This document shows, piece after piece, positions 17,603-49,582 of a DNA stretch of 64,000 bases. The notes beneath the pieces are model-generated. The model searched no databases and was not told the origin of the DNA. It saw only the letters and a list, made by a program, of their open reading frames with translations. This stretch comes from Escherichia phage Murica: the sequence record NC_041871.1. One strand, written 5' to 3'. Made by a program: the position numbers and the translations under genes. The stretch's first letter is position 1; every line of letters starts with the position of its first letter.

Positions 17603-18652
17603 ATGAATTTAACACCTCGCAGAACCATGGTACACGGCATGAAAGAAAAACAGAACGGTTTCGAACCTATGAGTAATAAAATGTTTGGTATGCCGGGCGG
17701 TATCATGGAAACATACAGCTACCCAACACCTGTTGTTGACCACGTTCTTTATATCGACGATTTGGAAGACTTACAAGATCATATGTCTCGCCTGCAGACG
17801 ATCCGTATGGCTCAGCCTGAAGAAAGCATTCGAGTGATCATTAACAGCCCTGGTGGTTGCGTGCACATTGCGATGGCTTATCTGCAGGCATTCCGCGAGT
17901 CTCAGGCAAGCGTTGTTGCACATGCTGAAGGAATGTGCTGCTCTGCGGGAACAATCTTATGGCTGGGTTGCAAAGAACGCACTGTGGCTCCGGACACAGA
18001 GTTTATGTTCCACTACTATCAAGGTGGCACTTATGGTAACGGTGTGAACATGAATACTCAGGTCAGCTACTGGAAAAAACGTTTTGAACGCCTGATTGAA
18101 AAATACTACGGTGGGGTGCTGACAGAAGATGAGATCGCATCCATCACAGCTGGTGGCGAAGTGTGGTTGGACGGAGAAGAGCTGGCAGCACGCACTGGAG
18201 CTATTATTCTGGATGAAGGCAACATACAACGCATCCAGAACGGACAAAAACCGAAAAAGCTTCTGGCAAAAGGTGATGAAGAAGGCGTGTTAGGTGAAGC
18301 AGGTCTCCCGGAGATTCACCAGTGCACATCTTTAGATGAGTTAGTTCATGCTGTTGAATCTGCAAAAGCGGGTGGTTCGAAAGGTGATGTTCACACTGTG
18401 TTCCTGAATCTGCAGATGGAAAGTGGCGAGACCGTCAGAATTGCCCTGGGTGAGATTACTTCAGAAGATCTGCAGAGATTCTCTGTCGTTGAACTTCAGG
18501 ATATTCTGTCTCAATTGAAGACTACTCTGAACGGCGGTGAAGAGGTTAAGGTGAAAGATAAGACTCGCAAGCGTCTGGTGGACAATATTATTAAAACAGC
18601 AAAAGAGCTCAATGAAAAAATCCTGGGTGCAGGAATTGTCGAAGAAGCTTAA
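17603..18652 (+). CDS. ClpP-family serine peptidase-like protein
   Basis: INSPGG, Ser in MCCSAGT, His in FMFHYYQGG parallel ClpP INSPGG / AASMG / MIHQPLGG; about 150 extra C-terminal residues. Confidence 0.55.
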   Translation: MNLTPRRTMVHGMKEKQNGFEPMSNKMFGMPGGIMETYSYPTPVVDHVLYIDDLEDLQDHMSRLQTIRMAQPEESIRVIINSPGGCVHIAMAYLQAFRESQASVVAHAEGMCCSAGTILWLGCKERTVAPDTEFMFHYYQGGTYGNGVNMNTQVSYWKKRFERLIEKYYGGVLTEDEIASITAGGEVWLDGEELAARTGAIILDEGNIQRIQNGQKPKKLLAKGDEEGVLGEAGLPEIHQCTSLDELVHAVESAKAGGSKGDVHTVFLNLQMESGETVRIALGEITSEDLQRFSVVELQDILSQLKTTLNGGEEVKVKDKTRKRLVDNIIKTAKELNEKILGAGIVEEA

Positions 18653-25060: not shown

Positions 25061-25360
25061 ATGCAAATTGAAATCACTGGCAACAATGTAGAAATCACAG
25101 AAGGTATGGTATCTTTTATTTCCCGCAAAATGTCCAAGCTGGAGCGTTTACATCCCTCTGTTAACTATGCACGTGTGAGTGTAAAAGTTGAAAATGATCA
25201 CCAGGAAGTTATGGCGTTCATTTTTGACAATTCTGGAAAAGAAGTTATTGCCAAGGCTAAAGGCAGTGATGCTTACGAGGCAACTGACCGTATGGTAGAT
25301 GTTGCAGCACGTCAGCTGGCTAAATGCGGTGGAAAGAAAGGTAAGGGGAAGGCAAAGTAA
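25061..25360 (+). CDS. hpf: ribosome hibernation promoting factor homologue (HPF/YfiA family)
   Basis: MQIEITGNNVEITEGM...VSVKVE...AKGSDAYEATDRMVDVAARQLAK parallels E. coli HPF MQLNITGNNVEITEAL...VVLKVE...AIDGLIDKLARQLTK. Confidence 0.85.
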   Translation: MQIEITGNNVEITEGMVSFISRKMSKLERLHPSVNYARVSVKVENDHQEVMAFIFDNSGKEVIAKAKGSDAYEATDRMVDVAARQLAKCGGKKGKGKAK

Positions 25361-25517: not shown

Positions 25518-25787
25518 ATGAAAATTAAATTATTCCAAACTGAGCTGGCAGACAAAAATTGTGGACTGGTTGAAGGCATGATTGTTGAAGCACAACCAGT
25601 GGACTATATGAAGGTGGTTCGTGATGCCCTAGGTGAAGGTTTTGATCTGATGGAGCCAGCTCTGCGAGAAGATGTTATCGAGATGGCTAAAAAGCACACA
25701 CCTGAAGGTTTGGTGGTGTTTGTTGCACCGGGTAACGGAGAAGAGTTGATTGTAACTCCTGATGTGTATGAGATTGTAGAGGAATAA
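25518..25787 (+). CDS. small acidic protein (family-like, ends YEIVEE)
   Basis: MKIKLF...VVFVAPGNGEELIV...DVYEIVEE. Confidence 0.5.
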   Translation: MKIKLFQTELADKNCGLVEGMIVEAQPVDYMKVVRDALGEGFDLMEPALREDVIEMAKKHTPEGLVVFVAPGNGEELIVTPDVYEIVEE

Positions 25788-43461: not shown

Positions 43462-43525
43462 GATTTTATCCTCTTAGTGTCTTTTGTGCTTTTAGTGTAT
43501 TTGGTGTCGTACTATATGTCAATAC

Positions 43526-43723
43526 TTATTTTTTATTAAACCAGTGGTTGATCTGGCCTTTTGTCAGGGCGCAACGATTAAGCTGTTGCCGGGTATAGCT
43601 CTGACCACGACGGAATTTATAAAGGCCTTGCCCGTTGTTGATGGTTACATCCACCCGGCAAATCACTTGATCCGTGACCACCTGGCGAGTGTTGCGACGT
43701 ACTTTGATTCCGTAGGCGTTCAT
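43526..43723 (-). CDS. hypothetical basic protein
   Basis: 65 codons. Confidence 0.45.
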   Translation of the reverse strand: MNAYGIKVRRNTRQVVTDQVICRVDVTINNGQGLYKFRRGQSYTRQQLNRCALTKGQINHWFNKK

Positions 43724-43967
43724 GATTTTTTATCCTCTTTGTTAATTAGTGCGGTGTTGTTCACCTTGCGATAATAAGAATAACAAGAACTGCCCGAGCT
43801 GTCAACCATTATGTAAAATTATTTTTTTGGGTAGAATTCTCCAGCCGCCACCCCTGCCAGGTTTGCAAGCTTTCACTCTCCCACCTGGTCAGTTAGGTCC
43901 TGCTAGGGCTGGCCCCGCCAGGTTGCAGCAGTTGACGCACTATGTTAGAAAAATTTTTTGAAAAGTG

Positions 43968-44098
43968 TTGACAACGGCCCCACCAGGTGGCACAATATAC
44001 CTATCGAAAGGACGGCAGGCACCGGTGACGGGGGAGACAACCACTGGGGATGGGCGCTGCATAAAATGAGAACGGTTATCATTATCATTTAAAAATTT
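43968..44098 (+). promoter_or_regulatory. promoter plus GC-rich motif unit A (candidate small RNA locus)
   Basis: TTGACA (43968-43973), palindrome CCACCAGGTGG (43980-43990), GGGAGACAACCACTGGGG (44032-44049), then AAATGAGAACGGTTATCATT. Confidence 0.35.
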
Positions 44099-44111
44099 AT
44101 GCAAAAAATCC

Positions 44112-44230
44112 TTGCTTTCTTTGTCCTGTGTGATACTATAATAACAAGCCGGGGCAACAGGGGCCGGGAGACAATCACCGGGCCTGCCCGTTATTCTGCA
44201 AACGAGAATGATTATCATTCAAAATTCTAA
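44112..44230 (+). promoter_or_regulatory. promoter plus GC-rich motif unit B (candidate small RNA locus)
   Basis: TTGCTT (44112-44117), TATAAT (44137-44142), GGGAGACAATCACCGGGCCTGCCCG (44166-44190), then AAACGAGAATGATTATCATT. Confidence 0.35.
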
Positions 44231-44824
44231 ATGAGAACTCCTCGCATTTAATAAATTTAATTAGCACGCTAATTACACTCCGTAACAATTTACTATAAAA
44301 TAGTATCCACTAAAATATTCCCATATAGAAATTTTAAAAATCCATTTCTGAAAACGAAAAATCGATTTCGTCCCTAAAAATTTCAGGCCTAGATCCGGAA
44401 CGATTTCCAGAAAATCCGATTCAGAAAACGAAAAACAGATCGAGTACTGAGAAATTTATCGAGAAAAATTTTCAGAAAATCCAAGCCCTGAAATGAAAAG
44501 TAGATCGAGTACCTGGAAAGCTGCACCGCAACTTCAAGATAGTGGTTAGATTGTTACCATAGAAGGTCAAGGGTAAGTGGAGGAAGTTCTAGTAGAGGGA
44601 GGTTAGCATGTGTGGGAAATCTATAATGGTGGCCTGGAATATGGTGCAAACGATAGGATGAGTTATTCAGCTTGTCGCGCCTACTCTGAAAAATCCATTT
44701 TAGTTTTCGATCCATTTTCTGATTTTCTAAGAATTTTAAAATATCCGGCCCGGTGAAATATCAAAAGGAGGAAATCCATTTTAGAAATCCTCCTTATACT
44801 TGATATGCCAGGAATTTTCAAGTA

Positions 44825-45154
44825 TCAGCTGTCTTTGTTTTTAGGTTTGTACATGCGCAGAGGTATGGTCTTTGTAACATTCCATTTCCTCAACCCTTCC
44901 CAGCTCCAGTTGTGGGCGTGATACCCGGTTATGCATGCACTGCTGGCGTGATCATAAGCATAAGAGAACGCTATGTGCACCAGGTGGGGCCAGTCCTTCC
45001 ACGGCTGTGGACCGTAAGCCTTTCTCCAACACCGACACAAACTAATTGTCTCAAGAATAGGGAGAATAACAATTCCATATACCACCACCAGAATGGTCAG
45101 TGCAATGATTGTCAGGAAGACATACCCTGCAGTTGAAATGATGATCTCTGTCAT
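44825..45154 (-). CDS. small membrane protein
   Basis: Hydrophobic IISTAGYVFLTIIALTILVVVYGIVILPIL. Confidence 0.5.
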   Translation of the reverse strand: MTEIIISTAGYVFLTIIALTILVVVYGIVILPILETISLCRCWRKAYGPQPWKDWPHLVHIAFSYAYDHASSACITGYHAHNWSWEGLRKWNVTKTIPLRMYKPKNKDS

Positions 45155-45354
45155 TTGTCGTCCCCTTTCTTACGAATATAGATGTGAGAGCCTGCCTGTA
45201 TATAAATTTCTCGACCATCCTCTGCAAAGATATGAAATACACGATCACCTTCGTACTCGATACGAGATATCTTCATAATGGTCTTTCCACCTGGGATACG
45301 GATCTCGTCCCCCACAGCGATGTTCCATGCAGATTTAAGCTTAAACATCTGCAC
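45151..45354 (-). CDS. hypothetical protein
   Basis: 67 codons; overlapping start/stop. Confidence 0.45.
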   Translation of the reverse strand: MQMFKLKSAWNIAVGDEIRIPGGKTIMKISRIEYEGDRVFHIFAEDGREIYIQAGSHIYIRKKGDDK

Positions 45355-45586
45355 CCTCCTTTGGGAACTTGAACTCTGGCATAGCCATATACGCTACAAC
45401 AGGGTTGTGATCAAAGTAGAACTGACCGTTAATTATCCCGGTTTTGTCCACATAGTTACCAGATCCTGCAAGAACAACCTCGCAAGCTCCGAAATCCACA
45501 TTGCCATCCTCATCAGCCATGGCTACGATATACTTTCCAAGAGGCATGTTTTTAACGCCGTCTACAAATGTCCACTCTGTGTTCAT
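45341..45586 (-). CDS. hypothetical protein
   Basis: 81 codons. Confidence 0.45.
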   Translation of the reverse strand: MNTEWTFVDGVKNMPLGKYIVAMADEDGNVDFGACEVVLAGSGNYVDKTGIINGQFYFDHNPVVAYMAMPEFKFPKEGADV

Positions 45587-45595
45587 ACTTTACCC

Positions 45596-45928
45596 TTAAG
45601 GTAGCCAGTAAACAATCTCACCTTTCAGCTTCATATCGTTTCCAACATAAATTTCCCAGCCATCCATCTTAGCAACTGTAGGCCCAAAGTCATCCGCACC
45701 CCTTACCTCTTTCCAGGCTCCGTAGTCAGGTTGCCAGATATAGAATCCACCTTCTTTGTCCCATGCTCCGTACACTACGTTTAACAAGTTTCCCATTGCA
45801 ACAATGGTGGGCCGTGGGAATAATACATCTACAGATGCGCCACAATTTCGGGTATCTTTTAAGTTGCAATCCCAAAAGATGTCTGCCAGTGTGGCGGCGA
45901 TAGCTTTACGTCTTTCCAAAGTTACCAT
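45596..45928 (-). CDS. hypothetical protein
   Basis: 110 codons. Confidence 0.5.
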   Translation of the reverse strand: MVTLERRKAIAATLADIFWDCNLKDTRNCGASVDVLFPRPTIVAMGNLLNVVYGAWDKEGGFYIWQPDYGAWKEVRGADDFGPTVAKMDGWEIYVGNDMKLKGEIVYWLP

Positions 45929-45938
45929 GGCACGATAC

Positions 45939-46130
45939 TCACTTGTTGTTAAGAAGTTCTAAAACTTTCTGTTTTACTTTATCAAGATCTGTTGATTCAA
46001 AAACTGTGCGATATCCCCAACTTTGCCCGTAGGAGTGACTGCAATCCCCGTAGCACCATTGCTCAATTTGATAGTATTCAAGGAAGGGGTGCTGTCTAAC
46101 TATGATACCATCCCGGTTAAAAATTACCAT
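45939..46130 (-). CDS. hypothetical protein
   Basis: 63 codons. Confidence 0.4.
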   Translation of the reverse strand: MVIFNRDGIIVRQHPFLEYYQIEQWCYGDCSHSYGQSWGYRTVFESTDLDKVKQKVLELLNNK

Positions 46131-46193
46131 AATACATCACTCTCTGTTAGTTTATGCATATATTATACACTGCAGTTTTCAGATGTCAATCTT

Positions 46194-46388
46194 TTACAGG
46201 TTACTCCAGTATAATCGGCATTTACATTTTGGGCAATGAGGTTCTTTTATGTAATAACCATCAGTCTTTGGAACACTTTTTGGTGCAGTTTTAAGATTGT
46301 ACCTGGTAAAACATCGGAAGCAGGTTACCTCTCCCACCTGTTGATCGTTGATCCACTCACCAGAGTAAAGCTCTTTCTTGTTTCTCAT
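46194..46388 (-). CDS. zinc-ribbon miniprotein
   Basis: CFRC...CPKCKC; ATG after GGGAGAG; track start further upstream. Confidence 0.45.
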   Translation of the reverse strand: MRNKKELYSGEWINDQQVGEVTCFRCFTRYNLKTAPKSVPKTDGYYIKEPHCPKCKCRLYWSNL

Positions 46389-46640
46389 AATTCTCTCCCA
46401 AATCCTCTGCAATCTTATACCAAAATCTCCAGCCAGAAAGCACACGGGAACACCTTGAGGATTGAATATTTACTTGGCTCGGAAGTTCTTTTTCCGTATG
46501 GTAGGTAGAAATACCCCCCCTGCAGATTCGAATATAGCTCCTTCGGTTGTATCTACCACAGCAAGAATTAAGATTTTAGTCTCCACAGTGCTCTCCTCTC
46601 TTAGTTGTTGTGGAAACTATATCACCTCAGAAGATGGTCG

Positions 46641-47099
46641 TCAACACTTTTTGTACTCTACTACAACCACATCAATATCTGTGGTTGCAAGATTAATTAC
46701 ATCTTCTACATGTTCCCACTTTAGACCGCCAATACCGCATCCAATTTTAGGAATGTAGAACGGCAATGACACACCTTTGAATACCTCGTTGACTCGCTCA
46801 AAACCTTTCATTATTGAGAAGTATTCAGCATTGGGCCCTGGGTAGAACTGGGTATACAGGTTGATTCCATATACGACCCTGTTCTTGGCAAAATGCTCCC
46901 AACAAGAAAACATACCCAGCTTGTCCAGATTACCATAGGCAGTCTCTTTGTCGGCTGCCAGTGCTTGAGGGAACTCACGGGCAATATCTTTCGCTATGCC
47001 TGCACCCATTGTATGAAAGCAGTTACAACCGTGGATCAGGTGACCAGCACCGCTCTTAAAAAGGGAGATTAAATCTCCCGCTACAGTATCAATAATCAC
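46641..47099 (-). CDS. macro domain protein (ADP-ribose binding / hydrolase fold)
   Basis: HGCNCFHTMGAGIAKDI fits macro NxxxxxxxGxGVAxAI motif; YIPKIGCGIGGLKWE fits second glycine-rich IGxGxxG motif. Confidence 0.75.
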   Translation of the reverse strand: MIIDTVAGDLISLFKSGAGHLIHGCNCFHTMGAGIAKDIAREFPQALAADKETAYGNLDKLGMFSCWEHFAKNRVVYGINLYTQFYPGPNAEYFSIMKGFERVNEVFKGVSLPFYIPKIGCGIGGLKWEHVEDVINLATTDIDVVVVEYKKC

Positions 47100-47514
47100 G
47101 GTATGTCAGCTCCTCTTCCGCAATTTCAAAAAACTCATCCCAACCTTGTGGCATATTTGAGTTGCCGAAGTGGCTTTCATAGTAAAGGTTCTCACCACTT
47201 GGGAGATAGAAATCTGTTACCTCGTAGAATCCACAATCGTCGCACTCGCCTTCTTCAAACTTGGCCTCAACCTTAATACCTAGGAAGGTGAAAAGTTTAT
47301 GGATATCTTCAGTTTCGAACTCCCAGTAGATATTGTTTTCCGCATCGGTGTAGAACTGGATCAGCAGACCATTATCCAGTTTACCAAAATATTCTGTGAA
47401 GTAACTACCTTCCCAGAAATCTTTATGACAAATAATATCCATGCGCTTGCCCATGATAAAGGTGTGGGCGTTTTGGGCATCGTCACGAATCAGTTTTGGC
47501 ATTTCATAGATCAT
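47089..47514 (-). CDS. hypothetical acidic protein
   Basis: 141 codons. Confidence 0.5.
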   Translation of the reverse strand: MIYEMPKLIRDDAQNAHTFIMGKRMDIICHKDFWEGSYFTEYFGKLDNGLLIQFYTDAENNIYWEFETEDIHKLFTFLGIKVEAKFEEGECDDCGFYEVTDFYLPSGENLYYESHFGNSNMPQGWDEFFEIAEEELTYRDY

Positions 47515-47582
47515 CTTAGTTCTCCGGGTTCAACAGGTGGTGGTGCTACAGGAAGATCATAAAACATAGCTATCACAGTCTC

Positions 47583-47780
47583 TTACACAGGAATTGCTTC
47601 AAACAGGCCGTTATCTATACCGTCCTTCAGATAGAGATTATATTCTATGTCGGTATCTGTATAAAGGGCAGCATCCAGCATTCTATCTGTGAGTCCATCC
47701 ATTGGGTGGAGAAACCACCACCCACGCCAGTCAAAGTAACAGCCTGGTGCATCTTCTCTTACACGGATTCGATAAATCAT
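47583..47780 (-). CDS. hypothetical protein
   Basis: 65 codons. Confidence 0.4.
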   Translation of the reverse strand: MIYRIRVREDAPGCYFDWRGWWFLHPMDGLTDRMLDAALYTDTDIEYNLYLKDGIDNGLFEAIPV

Positions 47781-47876
47781 GGGCAGTGGCCTCCTGTTAG
47801 TTATACATCCCAGTTTTCTTCGTTCATCACGTCCTCCCGTTCTATGAAGTTATAATTGCACACCTTTCCACCTGTG

Positions 47877-48293
47877 TCAACAGAAAACTTCAACAAACTC
47901 TTCCACAGTTTTAATGTCGTGGGAAAAAGGTTTACGGCTATAACGGGCAATAGCACTATCAACCACCGCCCGGTACTCCAAATCTTCAGAATATTTCATG
48001 AAGCATTGCAGCGTCTCTGGGCAGATAGCTAAATAGCTCCACCACCCTTCTTCAGATTGGTAGTCGAATCCCATACTTTCCAACCATGAAGCATATACTC
48101 CTGCACCCTCAAGCCAGTGAGTATTTTCATCCAGAAACTTGTTAATAGACATGTGAGCTTCTAAGCATTTATCCAGCTCTTTTCCGTTAACCAGCCACGC
48201 ACTGACCGTGGCGCATCCAAGGTCTACAGATTGAGTTGACAGGTTGTATTGGTCATAGTTCTCAGGTTTAACAATGATATCTTCTAATGTCAT
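47877..48293 (-). CDS. hypothetical protein
   Basis: 138 codons. Confidence 0.5.
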   Translation of the reverse strand: MTLEDIIVKPENYDQYNLSTQSVDLGCATVSAWLVNGKELDKCLEAHMSINKFLDENTHWLEGAGVYASWLESMGFDYQSEEGWWSYLAICPETLQCFMKYSEDLEYRAVVDSAIARYSRKPFSHDIKTVEEFVEVFC

Positions 48294-48310
48294 TTTTTAG
48301 ATCTCCTTAT

Positions 48311-48340
48311 ACAAAAATGCCCCACCCTTTCAGGCAGGGC
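48311..48340 (-). terminator. intrinsic terminator (repeated sequence, copy 1)
   Basis: GCCCCACCCTTTCAGGCAGGGC on + strand; on - strand GC stem with G-U pairs then UUUUUG. Confidence 0.5.
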
Positions 48341-48355
48341 TATGTTAACTAAATG

Positions 48356-49582
48356 TTAAAATGGGATGTCATCATCAAAGACGTACTGTGCTGGATTCTG
48401 ATCCATTGGGTCATCTTCCGCATCATTTACAGGAGGAGCGTCTACAGTGTTTTGCTGTGGAGCTGCTTCCTGTTTGGCAGCCTGAGGTTCTTGATGGTCA
48501 GTGGACTCAGCACCGTTCTTGATCCAATCGTACAACGGCTCAGCTAGATTAGTCAAGACATCTTTTGCTTCTGCAGTAATTGCCACTGCAAAATCATCAA
48601 CTTTCGTTTTCTTGTCAATACGGCGACAAGCGTTCAACACCGCATTACCGACACTGGCACCTACTTCATCTTCAGTTCGGTTGGTGGCTTGAGCATACTC
48701 TTTCTTAAGCTCAATGGTGACTACGTGCAGTGTTTTAGCCACGCCCAGTGGGTCGTCTACCTTAAACCCGCGATCCAGGATGATCTGCAACGCATTGATG
48801 CTATGCCCCGTTTCCACACCGATAGGGTCGTAAGAGGATTTACGCTTGCCACCAGAGCCTTGAGTGCCGTTCTCTGCCTTAGGAGGATAGGCCTTGAAAC
48901 CACTGATAATGTTTCCGGTGTCTTTGTCAACAATGGCTGCAACACGACCACCTACCACCAGGTCTTTAAGCTGCTCATCAGTTACAACCATAGCACCTTC
49001 GCCAATCTTGTGGTCATTAACAGTAACCACGTTGCCAACAATCTGAGTCACATCACCATAGATGCGTAAAACGTCCTGATTGGCATTCTGCTGAGGTTTC
49101 TGCTTCTGGCCTTGTGATTGTGCACCTTGTTGCTGTTTTTGCTGCTGAGTCGCTGCTGGAGCCTCTCCTGCACCCAGCTTGACCATCTTAGCCAGTGAGC
49201 CTTTGTAATAGGTCTTACCGTTATGCTCGTTTGCCTTCAAAGGAATATTTACGATCCATCCCGGCGTTACGGTTTCCCACTTGTCATCAATTTTAACAGA
49301 GACAGAGTCTTGATGACCAGGTTTAAGCAGCTTATCACCCATGCTGATCCAAACTTCTTCACCACCTTGAAGCAGGTTATCAGAGGAATCCAGTTCAGAA
49401 ATCAGTAAAGAGATGGTGTGGCTGGATTCAATTTTCTTACCTTGCCACACAGTGGTTTTAATACCTGTTGTAGGATCAGCACCTTTGATAGGCTTGATGC
49501 TGACACGTTTAATCATGCCGTGAGCCAGTAAAACAGTTTCACGCGGATTCATCGGGTTAGCGAATTGTTGAATAACGCTCAT
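48356..49582 (-). CDS. SSB-like protein with bacterial SSB-type acidic C-terminal tail
   Basis: C-terminus ...YVFDDDIPF identical in form to E. coli SSB DDDIPF; Gln/Gly-rich linker; next to replisome genes. Confidence 0.5.
   Translation of the reverse strand: MSVIQQFANPMNPRETVLLAHGMIKRVSIKPIKGADPTTGIKTTVWQGKKIESSHTISLLISELDSSDNLLQGGEEVWISMGDKLLKPGHQDSVSVKIDDKWETVTPGWIVNIPLKANEHNGKTYYKGSLAKMVKLGAGEAPAATQQQKQQQGAQSQGQKQKPQQNANQDVLRIYGDVTQIVGNVVTVNDHKIGEGAMVVTDEQLKDLVVGGRVAAIVDKDTGNIISGFKAYPPKAENGTQGSGGKRKSSYDPIGVETGHSINALQIILDRGFKVDDPLGVAKTLHVVTIELKKEYAQATNRTEDEVGASVGNAVLNACRRIDKKTKVDDFAVAITAEAKDVLTNLAEPLYDWIKNGAESTDHQEPQAAKQEAAPQQNTVDAPPVNDAEDDPMDQNPAQYVFDDDIPF

Follow-up and report, generated by a model that had tools for sequence, protein, structure and literature searches.

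A stand-alone macrodomain protein of Escherichia phage Murica: a Tk.4/AdfM-type homologue and probable anti-DarT2 DNA de-ADP-ribosylase

DarT2 modifies thymidines of single-stranded phage DNA with ADP-ribose, and replication stalls (PMC11825919). The HIDEN-SEQ transposon screen of T4 on a DarTG2 host gave one significant depletion, that of tk.4; a clean tk.4 knockout sensitised T4 to DarTG2, and the gene was renamed adfM, for "anti-DarT factor Macrodomain" (10.1101/2025.11.20.689424, a preprint). The chimallivirus PhiKZ has a stand-alone macrodomain of the same name, gp104 or AdfM, which counters DarTG2 and removes thymidine-linked ADP-ribose (T-ADPr) from an oligonucleotide in vitro; phages in which it is deleted build up more ADP-ribosylated DNA in the course of infection (PMC13309987). 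The Streptomyces coelicolor protein SCO6735 (PDB 5e3b), the product of a bacterial chromosomal gene for which a genome-protection role has been proposed, not of a phage, removes ADP-ribose linked to thymidine from DNA and gives protection against DarT (PMC9411070). Here we analysed a stretch of 64,000 nucleotides from Escherichia phage Murica (NC_041871.1), referred to below as the window, and within it a minus-strand gene for a macrodomain protein that probably acts as an anti-DarT2 DNA de-ADP-ribosylase, with both the chemistry and the phenotype on DarTG2 carried over from these relatives.

The gene and the Shine-Dalgarno sequence in front of it have the following positions.

46641..47099, minus strand: macrodomain gene, 152 amino acids plus stop; GTG start at 47099-47097, stop codon at 46643-46641
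47110..47115, minus strand: Shine-Dalgarno sequence GAGGAG, 10 nt upstream of the GTG start

According to the listing of open reading frames (ORFs), the product is a single domain of 152 residues. It matched Pfam PF01661 (Macro) with 25.9 bits (E = 1e-5), above the gathering score of 22, and PHROG 335 with E = 1.4e-59. The AlphaFold2 model, computed from an alignment of 86 sequences, had a pLDDT of 95.4 and a pTM of 0.90 and displayed the three-layer alpha/beta arrangement with two glycine-rich ADP-ribose-binding loops that defines the macro fold. Used as a Foldseek query, the model retrieved TARG1, DarG, Poa1p, BT1257, and SCO6735, each with a probability of 1.00. Given these Pfam, PHROG, AlphaFold2, and Foldseek results, the macro assignment is far above chance. 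The nearest structural and profile neighbours belong to the TARG1/DarG/Poa1p/SCO6735 ("ALC1-like") class and not to the MacroD, viral, PARG, or macroH2A classes, and the protein is likely a stand-alone ADP-ribosyl glycohydrolase of that group, in the phage Tk.4 family.

An earlier note on this DNA, made from its letters alone, had proposed a stand-alone macro domain protein, and all four approaches bear this out. The structure prediction it had suggested yielded a confident macro fold; the residues were mapped by sequence and profile alignments. The note had also described two glycine-rich signatures. Both are present, with IGCGIGG at residues 119-125, but the spacing of the first needs correction: it reads N26-C-F-H-T-M-G32-A-G-I-A-K-D-I39, i.e., N-x5-GAGIA-xx-I, not seven residues between the asparagine and GAGIA. 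What the note overlooked is that the gene is already annotated as macro-domain in public relatives and that its catalytic residue is Gln, not the Lys of DarG and TARG1.

The Murica protein resembles T4 Tk.4 over its full length, with 39% identity over residues 1-150 (E = 1e-43). The two share PHROG 335, equal length, a stand-alone architecture, and identical H-G-C-N-C, G-x-G, N-L-Y-T-Q, and P-x-I-G-x-G motifs; the T4 protein is annotated "contains A1pp phosphatase motif." A gene of Krischvirus G2494, located at the syntenic tk.4 position (regB-vs.1-vs-tk.4...tk), encodes a protein 69% identical to that of Murica, while the same Krischvirus protein is only 44% identical to T4 Tk.4; the RB49 copy is annotated tk.4. 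By these identities the Murica protein lies within the range over which the Tk.4 family itself has diverged; the family has evidently passed between T4-like and rV5-like phages. The two settings differ in that T4 belongs to the Straboviridae and Murica to Vequintavirus, that vs lies upstream in T4 and a PHROG 8157 gene here, and that an anti-DarTG2 phenotype has been demonstrated for T4 only. Given its membership in the T4 Tk.4/AdfM family, the protein most likely removes from phage DNA the ADP-ribose placed there in defence. Reversal of defensive DNA ADP-ribosylation was the first of the roles considered in the earlier note and has since been reported for T4 Tk.4/AdfM, of which the Murica protein is a full-length homologue; for the plating on DarTG hosts that it proposed, a result is likewise reported for T4, where adfM is conditionally essential on DarTG2. 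On tk.4, a 2026 preprint contains only an sRNA-mRNA contact in T2, with the gene mislabelled as thymidine kinase.

In the 4 kb around the gene, Escherichia phage MiataMamis was 99.1% identical, and many other rV5-like phages (Vequintavirus) were 95-98% identical. In total, 120 records matched the region 45000-49000, 113 of them with at least 80% coverage. JLBYU08_122, which carries the label "putative macro domain-containing protein," has the same nucleotide sequence as the macrodomain gene; in other relatives the gene appears as "hypothetical," "macro domain protein," or "phosphatase," and the Vequintavirus Bas59 has a copy with 95% identity. In the comparison with FFH2, a diverged Vequintavirus at 84% amino-acid identity, the ratio of nonsynonymous to synonymous divergence (dN/dS) was 0.11 at a dS of about 1.0, which indicates that the gene is under strong purifying selection. 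Homologues were found by tblastn in 2,740 phage records, among them T4-like, FelixO1-like, Kuttervirus-like, KVP40-like, and other groups, a spread consistent with the published figure of Macro domains in about 41% of myoviruses (PMC9503650). A side observation from the same region is that 16 of the matching GenBank records are named "Campylobacter phage" (MG0656xx, host C. jejuni), with 95.5-97.2% identity among the matches listed; their host or name attribution looks doubtful.

The relatives also settle the start codon. In the MiataMamis annotation the gene is a 122-residue "phosphatase" starting at an internal ATG (Met31), by which the N-terminal strands and the H-G-C-N-C motif are dropped. 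The GTG-initiated protein is homologous to T4 Tk.4 and the Krischvirus protein from its residue 1 onward, the Krischvirus gene starts with ATG in this place, and the truncation removes the first beta-strands; the MiataMamis annotation is therefore wrong and the GTG at 47099 is the correct start. The GTG is kept in FFH2 and JLBYU08, and the Shine-Dalgarno sequence in front of it is further support.

The active-site residues were then assigned through two independent sequence or profile alignments, not through model geometry: a search of the family profile against PDB sequences, and a MAFFT alignment of the window protein with Krischvirus and T4 Tk.4, SCO6735, BT1257, TARG1, Mycobacterium tuberculosis (Mtb) DarG, and a PhiKZ-type protein. 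The elements identified were the following.

47022..47033, minus strand: H-x-C-N motif, His23-Gly24-Cys25-Asn26 (His23 at 47033-47031, Asn26 at 47024-47022), corresponding to SCO6735 His24 and Asn27
46992..47006, minus strand: first glycine-rich ADP-ribose-binding loop (GxG), Gly32-Ala-Gly-Ile-Ala36, with Gly34 and Ala36 invariant
46848..46850, minus strand: Gln84 codon CAG, at the position of the catalytic Lys (DarG K80, TARG1 K84), corresponding to SCO6735 Gln85
46725..46751, minus strand: second glycine-rich (phosphate-binding) loop, Pro117-Lys-Ile-Gly-Cys-Gly122-Ile-Gly-Gly125, with Gly122 corresponding to SCO6735 Gly128

Both alignments placed Gln84 in the column of the catalytic Lys, which reads as follows.

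Window protein: N-L-Y-T-Q84
SCO6735: N-M-I-G-Q85
TARG1: L-I-T-K84
Mtb DarG: F-P-T-K
PhiKZ type: F-P-T-K

Gln84, Asn26, and Gly122 were present in all 86 homologues and His23 in 85 of them, and Pro117, Gly120, and Gly122 were invariant. In SCO6735 the exchange Q85A abolished hydrolysis of thymidine-linked ADP-ribosyl-DNA, Asn27 was important, most likely by fixing Gln85 in its proper rotamer, and G128E caused a substantial loss of activity; the mechanism was described as distinct in its class, as it proceeds without the Lys of DarG and TARG1 (PMC9411070). SCO6735 and Bacteroides BT1257 (PDB 2fg1/2afc) resemble the window protein in having Gln at the Lys position, the H-x-C-N motif, the phosphate-loop Gly, and no counterpart of the TARG1 Asp, but share only 21-26% identity with it. 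As aligned, the active site of the Murica protein is of the Gln type, SCO6735-like and not DarG-like. The accessible part of the HIDEN-SEQ preprint makes no mention of Gln in place of the DarG Lys in Tk.4-type proteins; with Gln at the catalytic position, these proteins are to be compared with SCO6735 rather than with DarG.

On this basis, the action of the protein may be pictured as follows. During infection of a DarTG2 host, freed DarT2 would put ADP-ribose on thymidines of the single-stranded phage DNA and so block replication. The macrodomain protein would bind the ADP-ribose in a cleft formed by its G32-A-G34 and P117...G125 loops, where Gln84, positioned by Asn26 and with His23 nearby, would contact the distal ribose. 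Water would hydrolyse the ribose-thymine bond, so that ADP-ribose would be released and unmodified DNA restored. Since there is no catalytic lysine, unlike in DarG, the chemistry would be expected to take the Gln-dependent route of Streptomyces SCO6735.

DarG was the only match of the protein in the PADLOC and NCBIfam libraries, with 49 bits for the PADLOC model (positions 9-143 of 329) and 47.3 bits, against an equivalog cutoff of 250 bits, for NCBIfam antitoxin_DarG NF048014 (positions 4-144 of 338); both matches were limited to the macrodomain third of the model. The two proteins have in common the conserved Asn, the N-C motif, and the expected substrate, thymidine-ADP-ribose on single-stranded DNA (DarG structures PDB 5m3i, 5m31/5m3e, 7omu). 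DarG differs in having Lys80 (T. aquaticus and M. tuberculosis) where the window protein has Gln84 and in its C-terminal DarT-binding domain, which the window protein lacks, and no adjacent darT toxin gene was detected with Pfam and PHROG among the ten flanking ORFs. The protein thus resembles DarG but, for want of the Lys, the DarT-binding domain, and a neighbouring toxin, is not a DarG. PhiKZ AdfM, in contrast, is of the Lys type (N23/K78), and a PhiKZ-type orthologue, about 20% identical to the window protein, scored 133-138 bits on the DarG models, compared with 47-49 for the latter. PhiKZ AdfM further differs in its late expression and its import into the phage nucleus (PMC13309987). Two macrodomain lineages have received the name AdfM independently, that of T4 Tk.4 (Gln-type) and that of PhiKZ gp104 (Lys-type, DarG2-like), and the window protein is assigned to the T4 one.

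What the present analysis provided is the fold, the family membership, the conservation of SCO6735-type residues, and the purifying selection; the anti-DarTG2 phenotype comes from T4 Tk.4, and the hydrolysis of thymidine-ADP-ribose from SCO6735 and the Lys-type PhiKZ AdfM. Several points weigh against a DNA de-ADP-ribosylase. The identity to T4 Tk.4 is limited to the 39% given above, and the evidence for T4, from a preprint, is of a genetic kind: its authors deduced that T4 AdfM takes ADP-ribose off DNA enzymatically but gave no demonstration of it (10.1101/2025.11.20.689424). No experiment challenging Vequintavirinae with DarTG2 was found in the literature; a HIDEN-SEQ library was built in the Vequintavirinae phage Bas54, and no DarTG2 challenge of Bas54 is reported in that study (10.1101/2025.11.20.689424). 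The enzymology of Gln-type phage macrodomains is unreported in the literature. In SCO6735, a mobile loop with Lys89 and Lys94 is credited with aiding DNA binding; it is absent from the window protein, in which Gln84 is followed by a lysine-free loop (FYPGPNAEY), shorter by 6-7 residues than that of SCO6735 and BT1257. Moreover, His23 and Thr30 match His23 and Ser30 of the yeast ADP-ribose-1''-phosphate phosphatase Poa1p, so that phosphatase activity is possible, and Iyer et al. argued on the basis of gene neighbourhoods that the Macro domains of phages act for the most part on soluble ADP-ribose derivatives (PMC9503650).

These last two points lead to the main rival reading, unlikely in our judgement, that the substrate is a soluble ADP-ribose derivative and the protein an ADP-ribose-1''-phosphate phosphatase or O-acyl-ADP-ribose deacylase, fed by a phage RNA-repair module dependent on nicotinamide adenine dinucleotide or by toxic ADP-ribose-1''-phosphate that host RES-type toxins could supply. 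Relatives are widely labelled "phosphatase," "A1pp," or "Poa1p-like," and Poa1p (PDB 6lfq and others) was an equally good structural match. Its His23, Ser30, and Phe152 are the residues mutated in PDB 6lfs, 6lft, and 6lfu; the first is equivalent to the conserved His23 and the second aligns with Thr30, but Phe152 aligns with Gly124, a position that is Gly or Ala in 86 of 86 homologues, never aromatic, and Gly or Ala also in DarG and SCO6735. Poa1p presumably has S-S where the Tk.4 family has an invariant T-Q. A possible source of substrate is found in JLBYU08, which has two Sir2-like coding sequences (CDSs) beside RNA ligase 1, together with polynucleotide kinase and phosphoesterase.

JLBYU08 134052-136831 (not part of the window): two CDSs of a split RNA ligase 1, then two "Sir2-like" CDSs

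Iyer et al. (2022) give phage V5 as a prototype of a sirtuin-centred RNA-repair neighbourhood and expect such a module to yield ADP-ribose phosphates, and the Sir2/RNA-ligase module could be a source of these by-products. It is, however, unlinked to the macrodomain gene, about 50 kb away, and the same authors note that no Macro gene is coupled to the sirtuin module. T4, moreover, carries Tk.4 without such a module, its phenotype was specific to DarTG2, and the complete His/Asn/Gln/Gly set of the window protein matches that of the DNA-acting SCO6735. A role on soluble derivatives and one on DNA are compatible, not mutually exclusive. Degradation of cyclic ADP-ribose-type signals, which the earlier note had also raised, received no support. 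A Thoeris preprint from 2026 deals with ThsA, a macrodomain protein of the host, and not with those of phages.

Human TARG1 (OARD1; PDB 4j5r and others), a compact fold of about 150 residues, was the top Foldseek match (E = 1e-8, template modelling score 0.73-0.80), and its main substrates are protein Glu/Asp-ADP-ribose and O-acetyl-ADP-ribose. By analogy with its action on Glu/Asp-linked protein ADP-ribose, the phage protein might de-ADP-ribosylate protein or RNA, either removing marks set by host ADP-ribosyltransferase (ART) toxins or defences or tuning marks made by the phage. T-even phages do ADP-ribosylate host proteins, through Alt, ModA, and ModB. SCO6735, too, de-modifies a protein substrate (PMC9411070). 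We nevertheless hold this to be very unlikely: of the Lys84/Asp125 dyad of TARG1, Lys84 is replaced by Gln84, and Gly124-Gly125 stands at the D-R of G-C-G-L-D-R; the DarTG2-specific phenotype in the T4 screen argues against it as well. No ADP-ribosyltransferase was found in the whole annotation of JLBYU08, which also tells against the regulation of the phage's own modifications suggested in the earlier note, and no NADAR, ART, DarT, or Nudix family was found among the 25 listed of the 35 Pfam families matching the 120 window ORFs; the ten further families each match one ORF, with E above 4e-6. To a non-catalytic action, in which the protein would bind and block DarT2 directly or sequester an ADP-ribose-derived immune signal, we give hardly any credence, even though the dead variants SCO6735 Q85A, DarG K80A, and TARG1 K84A still inhibit DarT in vitro (PMC9411070) and ICP1 AdfB counters DarT through direct binding (PMC11481870). 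The invariance or near-invariance of the SCO6735 catalytic residues in the 86 homologues is the pattern of an enzyme, not of a sponge, and the DarT-binding domain of DarG is missing, the NCBIfam match ending at position 144 of 338. To our knowledge, the known anti-Thoeris sponges have unrelated folds.

That a macro domain is annotated in relatives, that phage macrodomains are common, that phages reverse the DarT modification, and that the T4 family acts against DarTG2 is already known. New here are the assignment of the rV5-like gene to the Tk.4 family, the correction of its start codon, and the description of the T4-type family as having an SCO6735-like Gln site and forming a lineage separate from PhiKZ AdfM. 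The general picture of phage macrodomains is changed neither by this assignment nor by the points concerning Gln type and lineage. A gene that is "hypothetical," "phosphatase," or truncated in most of about 120 rV5-like genomes thereby obtains a concrete annotation, that of a probable anti-DarTG2 enzyme, in phages widely considered for therapy and biocontrol. A broader view, which we offer tentatively and with more doubt than conviction, is that T4/rV5-type AdfM is a separate Gln-dependent lineage with SCO6735-like water-activating chemistry, spread over about 2,700 phage records and many myovirus groups, and not a captured DarG; that Lys-type PhiKZ AdfM arose by an independent capture of a DarG2 macrodomain; and that the rV5-like enzyme is perhaps bifunctional, acting on both DarT2 adducts and the ADP-ribose-phosphate by-products of sirtuin and RNA ligase. 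If the separate-lineage view were true, the one name AdfM would stand for two unrelated acquisitions.

The macrodomain gene lies within a long minus-strand block containing rIIA/rIIB, a helicase, a methyltransferase, a primase-helicase, DNA polymerase, an SSB-like gene, and many small ORFs. Between 43500 and 51000 there were 26 sigma-70-like promoter matches, the majority on the minus strand, compared with 13.6 +/- 3.4 expected from shuffled sequence. With the replication-gene block and the doubled number of promoter matches, early expression of the gene appears plausible; no transcriptome of an rV5-like phage was found in the literature. The features nearest to the gene are listed below.

47089..47514, minus strand: upstream ORF, 141 amino acids, PHROG 8157, overlapping the macro GTG start by 11 nt
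47852..47880, minus strand: candidate sigma-70-type promoter, TTGACA-17-AATTAT with extended TG, about 750 nt upstream, by consensus match alone
46644-46616, minus strand: sigma-70-like promoter match with extended TG, directly after the macro stop codon
46189-46162, minus strand: sigma-70-like promoter match, a perfect TTGACA-16-TATAAT
46194-46445, minus strand: Phage_zn_bind_2 ORF (PF23903, 79.6 bits), second gene downstream of the macro gene
48356-49582, minus strand: SSB-like protein, 408 amino acids, acidic tail ...FDDDIPF, PHROG 4477, no Pfam match; "putative SSB" in JLBYU08

Because of the 11-nt overlap, the 141-residue ORF is probably co-transcribed and translationally coupled with the macrodomain gene, and the same arrangement is seen in FFH2 and JLBYU08. 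This ORF was rejected as an equivalent of T4 Vs, whose gene lies ahead of tk.4, as no similarity (E = 38) and no Pfam match was obtained. The candidate promoter at 47852..47880 could drive a 65-residue ORF, the 141-residue ORF, and the macrodomain gene. A terminator-like hairpin at 47079-47063, inside the 5' end of the macrodomain gene, was dismissed as a chance match within conserved coding sequence. All ten flanking ORFs fell into phage-only PHROGs with no function assigned; nine had no Pfam match and the tenth had the phage zinc-binding domain. The GTG start given for this tenth ORF is probably too far upstream, since a shorter form is annotated in relatives. The FDDDIPF end of the 408-residue protein resembles the C-terminal tips of bacterial SSB. 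MiataMamis, SophiaRose, WalterGehring, and others carry in the same 4-kb stretch an extra segment of about 640 bp annotated with an endonuclease VII or a homing endonuclease, an insertion that the window does not have.

Elsewhere in the window, the ORF-poor stretch at about 43500-44820 holds very small ORFs in relatives and promoter-like sites on both strands, with no tRNA or Rfam match; in the window as a whole, no tRNAs and no Rfam families were found. Three further genes may be listed.

25061-25360, plus strand: RaiA/ribosome hibernation homologue (Pfam Ribosomal_S30AE, 57 bits)
25518-25787: neighbouring ORF, "sigma 54 modulation factor" in JLBYU08, no Pfam match
17603-18652, plus strand: ClpP-like protease-domain protein, 349 amino acids (Pfam CLP_protease, 47.7 bits)

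The ClpP-like gene is located between the genes of nucleotide metabolism (NrdA/B/D/G, ThyX, PhoH) and a block of small ORFs. Finally, the tRNA cluster of JLBYU08, which is outside the window, includes a 100-nt "tRNA-Stop(tta)," possibly a suppressor-like or intron-containing tRNA.

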